Made by a program: the position numbers and the translations under genes. Below are positions 4,730-14,023 of a stretch of DNA of 39,572 nt, piece after piece (within the stretch, counting starts at the first letter, position 1; each line of letters starts with the position of its first letter). The notes beneath the pieces were generated by a model. The model did no database searches. It had not been told where the DNA came from and worked only from the letters and a program-made list of their open reading frames with translations. This DNA is from a virus (Duplodnaviria; Heunggongvirae; Uroviricota; Caudoviricetes), in IMG/VR virus record IMGVR_UViG_2521172733_000013; one strand, written 5' to 3'.

Positions 4730-4862
4730 TCTTTGGGACTCCTGGCTGATTAAGTATGTCGATAAGGCGTTTCCATCCGTCACGTAATTTACGGGTGATT
4801 CGTTCAAGTAAAGATTCGGAAGGGCAGCCAGCAACAGGCCACCCTGCAATGGCATATTGCAT
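4698..4862 (-). CDS. cIII: CIII (FtsH inhibitor, stabilises CII)
   Basis: Hand-translated 54-aa [57 protein letters not shown] starting at the ATG at 4862 (reverse strand); overlaps kil as in lambda. Confidence 0.85.
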   Translation of the reverse strand: MQYAIAGWPVAGCPSESLLERITRKLRDGWKRLIDILNQPGVPKNGSNTYGYPD

Positions 4863-4934
4863 GGTGTGCTCCTTATTTATACATAACGAAAAACGCCTCG
4901 AGTGAAGCGTAATTGGTATGCGGTAACGCTGCGC

Positions 4935-12291: not shown

Positions 12292-12959
12292 ATATCTACG
12301 AAAGAATTGATGGCAGCAAATACCGAAATATTTGGGTAGCTGGCGACCTGCACGGATGCTACACGAACCTGATGAACAAACTGGATACGATTGGATTCGA
12401 CAACAAAAAAGACCTGCTCATCTCGGTTGGCGATTTGGTTGATCGCGGTACAGAGAACGTCGAATGTCTGGAATTAATCACATTCCCCTGGTTCAGAGCT
12501 GTACGTGGAAACCATGAGCAAATGATGATTGATGGCTTATCAGAGCGTGGAAACGTTAATCACTGGCTGCTTAATGGCGGTGGCTGGTTCTTTAATCTCG
12601 ATTACGACAAAGAGACTCTGGCTAAAGTTCTTGCCCATAAAGCAGAAGAACTTCCGTTAATCATCGAACTGGTGAGCAAAGATAAAAAATATGTCATTTG
12701 CCACGCCGATTATCCTTGTAACGAATACGAATTTGGAAAGCCAGTTGATCCTCAGCAGGTAATCTGGAACCGCGAACGAATCGGCAACTCACAAGACGGG
12801 ATCGTGAAAGAAATCAAAGGCGCGGACACGTTCATCTTTGGTCATACGCCAGCAGTGAAACCACTCAAATTTGCCAACCAGATGTATATCGATACCGGCG
12901 CAGTGTTCTGCGGAAACCTCACATTGATTCAGGTACAGGGAGAAGTCGCATGGGTATAA
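12288..12959 (+). CDS. Ser/Thr protein phosphatase (PP-lambda / NinI-like metallophosphoesterase)
   Basis: 223-aa ORF with metallophosphatase motifs (GDLHGCY, GDLVDRG, GNHE); resembles lambda NinI; no ninH-like ORF precedes it. Confidence 0.85.
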
Positions 12960-13468
12960 GAGAGCTAAACCTCACCAAAGAGCAGCACGAGTGGCTGAAT
13001 GGCTGGCTTGAACTGTGGGGCGCATGGGTTTATTCAGGTCGTTTGGAAAAGCGCATGAGCAGCGTAATAGCGAAGTTCATGGAGAGCGTAGAGCCGGGAA
13101 GAGTTATGACAAGGCCAATGTGCAATGATGATGATGGAATGTTGATTTCTCAGGTCGTCGATTCCGTCATGTGCATTGACAAGAAAGCCTTTGGCATCCT
13201 CCTCAGCTACTACGCTCATGGTTCATCTAAGCGAGCAATTGCATCCTACTATCACGCGACTGCAAAGCCACGCAAGATGTGTGGACGTGGTGGCGAGGGA
13301 TGGAGAAAACCTTCACTGGCAACCTGTAGAAATGAAATTGACGACATCCTGAAAGCATCATTATTTGTTTTGTACCAACCAATGCAAAATGCTTTCAAAA
13401 TGCGTAAACGTGTTGAGAAAGTTAAACATGTTGCTGTTAAAAGTCTTGACATGCAATTAGCCAATTAG
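12950..13468 (+). CDS. Q: Late-gene antiterminator Q (phage 21/82 type, not lambda Q)
   Basis: 172-aa ORF at the end of the nin region, directly upstream of the pR'-like promoter; LELWGAWV and [11 protein letters not shown] motifs as in non-lambda Q proteins. Confidence 0.75.
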
Positions 13469-13475
13469 CCATAAT
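13446..13475 (+). promoter_or_regulatory. pR'-like late promoter (qut region) overlapping the Q 3' end
   Basis: TTGACA at 13446-13451, 18-bp spacer, CATAAT at 13470-13475; followed by an imperfect hairpin and U-run (13521-13530) that could act as tR'. Confidence 0.5.
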
Positions 13476-13530
13476 TAGAAGGTAAGCTGCCGTTAGTGAC
13501 TCTTAAGTTGCAACGGTGGCTTTTTTATTT

Positions 13531-13605
13531 GGGTCAGTCGTATAAAGGTCATTATGGAAGGCTGATAACCTTCTTATCGTGGTTCGAGTTCACGCTGTCC
13601 CGCCA
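13531..13605 (+). tRNA. tRNA-like gene, anticodon GAU (Ile), with one acceptor-stem mismatch
   Basis: Hand-folded cloverleaf: anticodon stem GAAGG/CCTTC with loop CUGAUAA, T-arm CGTGG-TTCGAGT-TCACG, U8, G18G19, 3' CCA; acceptor GGGTCAG/CTGTCCC has a U-U mismatch at 4:69 and the D-stem is weak. Confidence 0.5.
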
Positions 13606-13610
13606 AACAT

Positions 13611-13686
13611 GCTGGTTTAGCTCCAATGGTAGAGCAGTCGCCTTGTAAGCGAATGGGTAGCGGTTCAAGTCCGTTAACCAGCACCA
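13611..13686 (+). tRNA. tRNA-Thr (anticodon UGU)
   Basis: Hand-folded cloverleaf: perfect 7-bp acceptor GCTGGTT/AACCAGC, D-arm GCTC-CAATGGTA-GAGC, anticodon loop CUUGUAA, T-arm AGCGG-TTCAAGT-CCGTT, discriminator A and encoded CCA. Confidence 0.75.
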
Positions 13687-13803
13687 TAACTGAGCCGGAG
13701 CCACTGGCTGTCCTGAATTCATCAGTGATAGTTATGCTGCGGCCTTCTTTTTCCCCTTCCCAATATAAGAACTACGCAATCCGTTACTGGCGGAGGCGTT
13801 GCT

Positions 13804-14019
13804 ATGAAATCAATGGACAAAATCTCAACTGGCATTGCCTACGGAACATCTGCTGGTAGTGCGGGATACTGGTTTTTGCAGTGGTTGGATCAGGTCAGTC
13901 CGTCACAGTGGGCTGCGATTGGTGTACTGGGGAGTCTGATTCTGGGCTTCCTGACTTATCTGACAAATCTGTACTTCAAAATCAGAGAAGACAAGCGTAA
14001 GGCTGCACGGGGAGAGTAA
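13804..14019 (+). CDS. S: Pinholin, S21 type (dual-start holin/antiholin)
   Basis: 71-aa [74 protein letters not shown], matching phage 21 S / DLP12 EssD as I recall; two TM segments; dual starts at M1 and M4. Confidence 0.9.
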
Positions 14020-14023
14020 TTCA

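Follow-up and report, generated by a model that had tools for sequence, protein, structure and literature searches.

Two tandem tRNA genes lie between the antiterminator gene Q and the holin gene in a 39,572-nucleotide stretch of viral DNA (Caudoviricetes; IMG/VR record IMGVR_UViG_2521172733_000013), the whole of which is referred to here as the window. The window is a lambda-like prophage that is 99.2% identical over 36.3 kb to a prophage in Escherichia coli O111:H21 strain 15A (CP077477). ARAGORN predicted exactly two tRNA genes in the 39.6-kb window, both on the + strand, with an Ile-like gene in first and a tRNA-Thr gene in second position. Rfam confirmed both genes, 5 bp apart, and with them the coordinates of an initial annotation that had been made from the sequence alone. 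As set out below, the first gene is probably a decaying tRNA-Asn in a defective prophage, standing beside an intact tRNA-Thr. The genes and their spacer are as follows.

13531-13605, + strand: tRNA gene with anticodon GAU (Ile-type), equivalent to a mutated tRNA-Asn of the phage 21 family (ARAGORN, Rfam)
13606-13610, + strand: 5-bp spacer AACAT between the two tRNA genes (sequence)
13611-13686, + strand: intact tRNA-Thr(UGU) gene (ARAGORN, Rfam; annotated in CP077477 by the Prokaryotic Genome Annotation Pipeline, PGAP)

Both genes encode their CCA end and were accepted by Rfam/Infernal as well as by ARAGORN, with 47.2 bits for the GAU tRNA and 61.5 bits for the tRNA-Thr against the model RF00005, whose gathering score is 29. 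The tRNA-Thr is as well formed as had been described. It is 100% identical to its counterparts in phage 21 and Sf6, has the conserved G53-C61 pair and a stable D-stem, and carries G1-C72, C2-G71, G35, U36 and A73 (GCUGGUU...AACCAGC-A, anticodon UGU), so that the identity elements of threonyl-tRNA synthetase (ThrRS), namely G1-C72, C2-G71, G35 and U36, are all present. These specific positions were reportedly established for tRNA-Thr by Hasegawa et al. in 1992. The general rule for threonine identity is laid down elsewhere (PMC9976931). The irregularities seen earlier in the first gene were reproduced by the cmscan alignment, which shows U4·U69 mismatched in the acceptor stem and U13·U22 mismatched alongside a G10·U25 wobble in the D-stem. 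With G53·U61 in addition, this tRNA has neither the conserved G53-C61 pair nor a stable D-stem. Its anticodon is located at 13564-13566. PGAP left the GAU tRNA unannotated in CP077477, where the same sequence occurs and only the tRNA-Thr is annotated, and a tRNA-Asn is annotated in sibling prophages.

Sequence comparison identifies the pair as an already known late-leader module, tRNA-Asn(GUU)/tRNA-Thr(UGU), which phage 21, Sf6 and SfI share with numerous lambdoid and P22-like prophages. A search with 181 bases around the tRNAs matched 61 phage records, more than 40 of them at 97-98% identity and annotated with tRNA-Asn and tRNA-Thr. Carriers include phage 21, Sf6, SfI, BTP1, SPN9CC, HK446, Kapi1 and many E. 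coli and Salmonella prophages, and the module region was matched in 369 of 5,426 complete E. coli genomes. The module has been described for SfI (PMC3636060), for phage L (PMC8022706) and for P22-like prophages (PMC2629481), and the record annotations cite a study of the phage 21 late region from 1991. Among the papers cited here, descriptions of the pair 3' of Q in phage 21-type late operons go back to 2008, and the exact sequence is already in RefSeq. The initial annotation had presented a Thr/Ile pair as a cargo different from the ileZ-argN-argO genes of Shiga toxin (Stx) phages. This difference holds; a new cargo distinct from known phage tRNA sets is ruled out, as more than 40 phage records with an annotated Asn/Thr pair match at 97-98% identity and the region recurs in the 369 E. 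coli genomes.

The likeness to the phage 21, Sf6 and SfI module extends to its surroundings, as in each case the tRNAs follow a Q21-family gene, the promoter pR', a repeat resembling the Q-binding element (QBE) and the terminator tR', and precede the holin gene. Phage 21 and Sf6 also share the 5-bp spacing and the encoded CCA ends, and within the module family the spacer commonly reads either AACAT or AATAT. All 76 positions of the tRNA-Thr agree with theirs, as do 72 of the 75 positions of the first tRNA, including the U4·U69 mismatch and G73. The window differs in its anticodon, which is GAU and not GUU, and in the G·U wobbles at 10-25 and 53-61. ARAGORN identifies the first tRNAs of Sf6 and phage 21 as tRNA-Asn(GUU).

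An alignment of the window with CP077477, Sf6 and phage 21 reduces this difference to exactly three sites in the first tRNA relative to the tRNA-Asn of phage 21 and Sf6, with none in the tRNA-Thr or the spacer. C>T at 13555 converts G10-C25 into G·U, T>A at 13565 (U35A, the middle anticodon base) converts GUU into GAU, and C>T at 13590 converts G53-C61 into G·U; the discriminator G73 is retained (position 13602 is G). The gene is read as 'Ile' because of the T>A exchange in the middle anticodon base of an Asn gene. In practical terms, an isotype call from the anticodon alone ('tRNA-Ile') mislabels a mutated tRNA-Asn, which the comparison with orthologues reveals. Rfam rates the copies of Sf6 and phage 21 at 55.3 bits and that of the window at 47.2 bits. 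According to ViennaRNA, whose energies leave out tertiary contacts and base modifications, the cloverleaf has an energy of -19.1 kcal/mol in the consensus and -14.7 kcal/mol in the window, a loss of 4.4 kcal/mol. The ensemble probability of the cloverleaf is reduced approximately 190-fold relative to the consensus, and the cloverleaf of the first tRNA in the window lies 4.9 kcal/mol above its minimum-energy fold.

The prophage that carries this allele is defective. Its lambda-type major capsid gene E (23914-24939) contains an in-frame TAA (ochre) at 24608-24610, codon 232, followed by 109 further in-frame capsid codons, and for CP077477 PGAP lists gene E as a pseudogene interrupted by a stop. 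Since the prophage is unable to form capsids, selection on the accessory genes of the late operon is relaxed. The CP077477 prophage is integrated next to icd, with its integrase end adjoining that gene. Phage 21 and e14 likewise attach at icd. The integrase gene int lies at 4-1143 on the - strand of the window and, in CP077477, at 42009-43259 of the locus taken from that genome.

The spread of the GAU allele was traced in several sequence collections. A 34-base query that required A35 found one of the 5,426 complete E. coli genomes, which was CP077477. A sample of 122 copies was compiled from 120 IMG/VR contigs anchored on the tRNA-Thr and two CP077477 loci. Three of these copies had the window sequence, namely the two CP077477 loci and the IMG/VR contig L012 (14.3 kb, 99.97% identical to the start of the window), and all other alignable copies had C25, T35 and C61. 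The direct scan of IMG/VR for the GAU allele, with a 27-nt pattern around the anticodon, returned L012 and L125 only, both of the window lineage and the latter being 99.98% identical to the window over 10.5 kb. The pattern was absent from the scans of the metagenome collection and the GTDB species representatives, and a gene-conversion donor with T25, A35 and T61 was not found in any of these collections. When any change at anticodon position 34, 35 or 36 of the scaffold was allowed, all of IMG/VR again yielded L012 and L125 only, a single lineage, which speaks against recurrent anticodon shifts in this scaffold. A sequencing error in the anticodon is ruled out, since CP077477 and two IMG/VR contigs share all three changes. 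The GAU allele is real and inherited, and it is private to one prophage lineage.

Variation elsewhere in the family provides the background for this allele. Among 108 IMG/VR copies, differences from the tRNA-Asn consensus numbered zero in 69, one in 27, two in 4 and three in 4. The four copies with three differences comprise the two contigs of the window lineage and two other degraded alleles, L089 and L101, the latter with U33C and an altered discriminator. Together with diverged second tRNAs in other phages, L089 and L101 indicate that sporadic damage to either tRNA occurs in resident prophages. The wild-type tRNA-Asn is unusually well conserved and, U4·U69 included, shows no difference between phage 21, phage L and JLK-2012 (100% identity); the second tRNA is strongly diverged in phage L and JLK-2012, and the flanks diverge too. 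The wild-type module was also encountered on short contigs binned into Segatella copri and Collinsella metagenome-assembled genomes, where its presence is most likely a binning error.

The effect of the anticodon exchange on aminoacylation was assessed against published identity sets and against the host tRNA-Ile(GAU), which was taken from an rRNA operon of CP077477. In E. coli, the strong determinants of isoleucine identity are the anticodon, the discriminator and N6-threonylcarbamoyladenosine at position 37 (t6A37), with the pairs 4-69, 12-23 and 29-41 as minor ones, and asparagine identity resides in the three anticodon bases and G73 (PMC9976931). The loop elements G34, A35, U36, A37 and A38 of isoleucyl-tRNA synthetase (IleRS) are all found in the window tRNA. 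Outside the anticodon loop, it differs from the host tRNA-Ile(GAU) at every known identity position: the discriminator is G73 and not A73, pair 4-69 is U4·U69 and not C4-G69, pair 12-23 is A12-U23 and not U12-A23, and pair 29-41 is A29-U41 and not C29-G41. From the set of asparaginyl-tRNA synthetase (AsnRS), comprising G34, U35, U36 and G73, only U35 has been replaced, by A. Through U35A, a major AsnRS determinant is thus lost and the IleRS set is only partly supplied. Weak charging with isoleucine would be conceivable for such a tRNA, and efficient charging with isoleucine appears unlikely.

Codon usage was examined by mapping the coding sequences of the CP077477 prophage onto the window, with 42 host genes as the baseline. 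The values are given per thousand codons.

ACA: late genes 9.0, early genes 12.4, host sample 5.6
AAC: late genes 21.7, early genes 25.9, host sample 21.1
AUC: late genes 18.2, early genes 28.4, host sample 24.4
AUU: late genes 21.2, early genes 24.2, host sample 30.2
AUA: late genes 3.9, early genes 10.4, host sample 1.9

ACA was more frequent in late genes than in the host (Fisher p = 0.008) and reached 1.6 to 2.2 times the value of the host sample across the prophage, in agreement with the ACA bias reported for SfI (PMC3636060). This fits a supply role of the tRNA-Thr(UGU) in ACA decoding. The late genes, in turn, use AUC and AUU less often than the host sample does (p = 0.005 and 0.0002), and the host has tRNA-Ile(GAU) in its rRNA operons. 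A codon-supply role for isoleucine is ruled out, as AUC and AUU are depleted in late genes and the enriched AUA cannot be read by GAU. The proposal that the pair provides decoders for codons used by late genes is thus supported for threonine only. There was no bias in AAC here, and SfI likewise lacks one (PMC3636060). The strict conservation of the wild-type tRNA-Asn across very different phages, without an AAC codon bias in the window prophage or in SfI, is possibly of more interest than the GAU allele itself.

The late-operon elements around the tRNA genes are the following.

12950-13468, + strand: Q antiterminator of the Q21 family, Sf6 gp59 type (open reading frame list; homology; 'antiterminator Q family protein' according to PGAP)
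13446-13475, + strand: pR'-type late promoter (promoter scan; alignment to the annotated pR'/QBE of phage 21 and Sf6)
13483-13530, + strand: tR' late-leader terminator with a long hairpin and a T-run (homology; RNA fold of -20.3 kcal/mol)
13687-13803, + strand: untranslated stretch from the tRNA-Thr to the holin start, holding a mosaic joint at approximately 13748
13804-14019, + strand: class II (S21-type) holin, the first protein-coding gene of the late operon (open reading frame; 'class II holin family protein' according to PGAP)

The Q protein of the window shares 98.8% identity with Sf6 gp59 and 85% with the Q of phage 21, and the 3' end of its gene overlaps the late promoter. The position of the tRNAs just 3' of a pR'-like promoter was correctly recognized in the initial annotation: the promoter matches the sigma-70 consensus at 11 of 12 positions (TTGACA-18-CATAAT, with the -35 hexamer at 13446-13451 and the -10 hexamer at 13470-13475), and the direct repeat ATTAGCCA occurs twice at 13457-13472 between the hexamers, where the Q-binding element of phage 21 sits. 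Transcription would start at approximately 13482. A detail absent from that annotation is the terminator tR' between promoter and tRNAs, which matches the annotated phage 21 and Sf6 terminators base for base, T-run length excepted. The T-run (13522-13527) has six T in the window and Sf6 and seven T in CP077477 and phage 21. Because of the shape of its hairpin, tR' was missed by a simple terminator scan, and it was detected by homology and folding. The first tRNA begins on the base right after tR' (13530 to 13531). The pR' and tR' signals of the window match phage 21 elements that were studied experimentally according to the annotations in OL657228. The phage 21 homologue of the holin is annotated as S21, and ydfR, a lysozyme gene, Rz and bor are located 3' of the holin gene.

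Blastn alignments place the tRNAs close to a recombination joint. Identity to Sf6 is 96.7% over 12297-13748 and then stops, and identity to phage 21 is 89% over 12937-14020, through the holin gene. The mosaic joint at approximately 13748, just 3' of the tRNAs, separates a Sf6-type Q module from a phage 21-type lysis module and is compatible with the tRNA block having acted as a homology patch for module exchange. The tRNAs had been suggested to be a hot spot of integration or recombination. The joint lends indirect support to the latter; there was no sign of an integration site at the tRNAs, the prophage being inserted at icd with its int gene alongside.

Two further features of the prophage were recorded. 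As far as gene K, the window is nearly the same as the CP077477 prophage; from there on, in the tail-tip and fibre region (33284-38217), the two diverge, with protein identities of 90.6% for J, 84% for Lom and 64% for the tail fibre, which points to a replacement of the host-range module between otherwise identical prophages. In addition, a lambda cIII thermoregulator RNA (Rfam RF01804, 88.5 bits) was found at 4817-4875 on the - strand, at the start of the cIII gene.

In the scenario that we favour, Q would let RNA polymerase pass through tR', so that the tRNAs would be made from pR' at the head of the late transcript and could be released from it by host RNase P and 3'-end nucleases. The intact tRNA-Thr(UGU) would then add to the ACA decoding capacity of the host. 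The first tRNA would have been deprived by U35A of a main recognition element of AsnRS in favour of an Ile-type GAU, and by C25U and C61U of two Watson-Crick pairs, replaced by G·U wobbles, one of them at the near-universal G53-C61. It presumably folds poorly, is charged weakly or not at all, and is largely non-functional. The divergence of the tRNA-Asn (3/75, 4%) is approximately equal to that of the flanks from the nearest sampled relatives (~3%, i.e. ~97% identity), which is expected if constraint has been lost. Against these relatives, which are only ~97% identical in the flanks, an excess of substitutions in the tRNA would be hard to discern, three in 75 nt being no more than background.

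Several observations weigh against a decaying tRNA-Asn. The two stem changes, both of them C>U transitions, leave a wobble in place and break no pair, and Infernal and ARAGORN still recognize a tRNA in the GAU gene. The host tRNA-Ile(GAU) and the window tRNA share the anticodon loop CUGAUAA, and given this identical loop and the kept pairing, a folded tRNA that reads AUC and AUU is possible. All three changes fall in the 75-nt tRNA-Asn and none in the adjacent ~140 nt of tR' and tRNA-Thr; the probability of this, (75/216)^3 or ~0.04 if the 216-nt conserved block is uniform, is mildly non-random. Alleles with one or two of the three changes (T25 with GTT, or GTT with T61) were not found in IMG/VR. 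The capsid stop, moreover, could be more recent than the changes in the tRNA. As to the proposed processing, the excision of these tRNAs from the late mRNA is stated as not known in the literature (PMC8022706).

An unlikely alternative is that the tRNA-like units serve as elements of RNA processing or as module boundaries, in which case the anticodon would be irrelevant and U35A neutral. A cut by RNase P at 13531 would detach the late mRNA from the paused and terminated leader, with the conserved block acting as a homology patch for the exchange of Q and lysis modules. The start of the first tRNA directly after the T-run of tR', the mosaic joint at approximately 13748 and the identity of the tRNA-Asn in phage 21, L and JLK-2012 despite a diverging second tRNA and diverging flanks are in line with such a role, as is the lack of a phage AAC bias in the window and in SfI (PMC3636060). 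However, GUU is invariant in all other copies found in IMG/VR and in 117 of 120 sampled copies, the other three belonging to the window lineage, which argues that the anticodon is under selection and hence for decoding. Furthermore, the late operons of P22 and lambda work without a tRNA at this position (PMC8022706).

We consider it quite improbable that the first gene has undergone a functional Asn-to-Ile anticodon shift, by which IleRS would charge the scaffold via G34, A35, U36, t6A37 and A38 and an extra decoder of AUC and AUU would be gained. The 7-nt loop equals that of the host tRNA-Ile(GAU) with A37 kept after U36, both accompanying substitutions retain pairing as G·U, and the allele occurs in four assemblies and is hence inherited and not a sequencing error. 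An initiator tRNA with a GAU anticodon was reportedly charged with isoleucine in vivo, in work said to be that of Pallanck and Schulman from 1991. The anticodon is a strong Ile determinant and t6A37 matters too (PMC9976931), and shifts of acceptor class are a documented route of tRNA evolution (PMC3923123). On the other hand, the tRNA lacks the strong determinant A73 as well as each of the three minor ones in the stems, its 53-61 pair is weakened and its cloverleaf is destabilized by 4.4 kcal/mol. AUC and AUU are under-used in late genes, the host already possesses tRNA-Ile(GAU), and AUA is not read by GAU. Finally, the allele is limited to one lineage with a nonsense mutation in the capsid gene. 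A possible variant, in which the gene provides a spare copy resisting a toxin that cleaves the host tRNA-Ile(GAU), finds no support in the window. More broadly, it is quite improbable that an Asn-to-Ile shifted tRNA is still expressed and charged, be it as an Ile isodecoder or as a low-level Ile-to-Asn mistranslator. If true, the allele would be a rare natural snapshot of a change in tRNA identity within a bacterial mobile element, and nothing found here favours that. The mistranslating form taken by itself, an Asn-charged tRNA that reads AUC and AUU and places low levels of asparagine at Ile codons, is highly improbable: G73, G34 and U36 are retained and asparagine identity resides in the anticodon plus G73 (PMC9976931), but all three anticodon bases count for asparagine, U35 is lost, and such a tRNA would be harmful if expressed, with its expression in the lysogen expected to be low behind tR'.

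The locus holds little new biology, and the supposed different cargo amounts to a private three-substitution allele in a defective prophage. Another known system is that of the Stx phages (933W-type), whose ileZ-argN-argO genes lie between Q and stx in a lambdoid late leader and are transcribed with the late operon. Those tRNAs read the rare codons AUA and AGA/AGG, and the Q of these phages is of another type. The tRNA genes of the window are different ones, unrelated to them in sequence, and its 'Ile' anticodon GAU reads the common codons AUC and AUU, unlike the CAU/lysidine type that reads AUA.

A further parallel is the pair of phage L and ST64T (tRNA-Asn and 'tRNA-Leu(UAA)'), which represents the same module with an identical tRNA-Asn (PMC8022706), and in which one member is degenerate while the other is intact. 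In phage L, divergence has affected the second tRNA, which ARAGORN does not call; in the window the first tRNA is altered. The second tRNAs of JLK-2012 (692-767, annotated as tRNA-Thr) and phage L (692-763, annotated as tRNA-Leu(UAA)) are both without an ARAGORN call, and the second module position appears to degenerate or to be replaced in some lineages. The other system to be compared is that of alloacceptor anticodon shifts, which were reportedly described by Saks et al. in 1998. As in such shifts and in tRNA remolding (Rogers and Griffiths-Jones 2014, PMC3923123), a single substitution in the anticodon of the window tRNA is combined with a body that keeps the ancestral isotype. The documented shifts, however, are backed by conservation or function, whereas the copy in the window belongs to one defective lineage and is without the Ile elements outside the anticodon.

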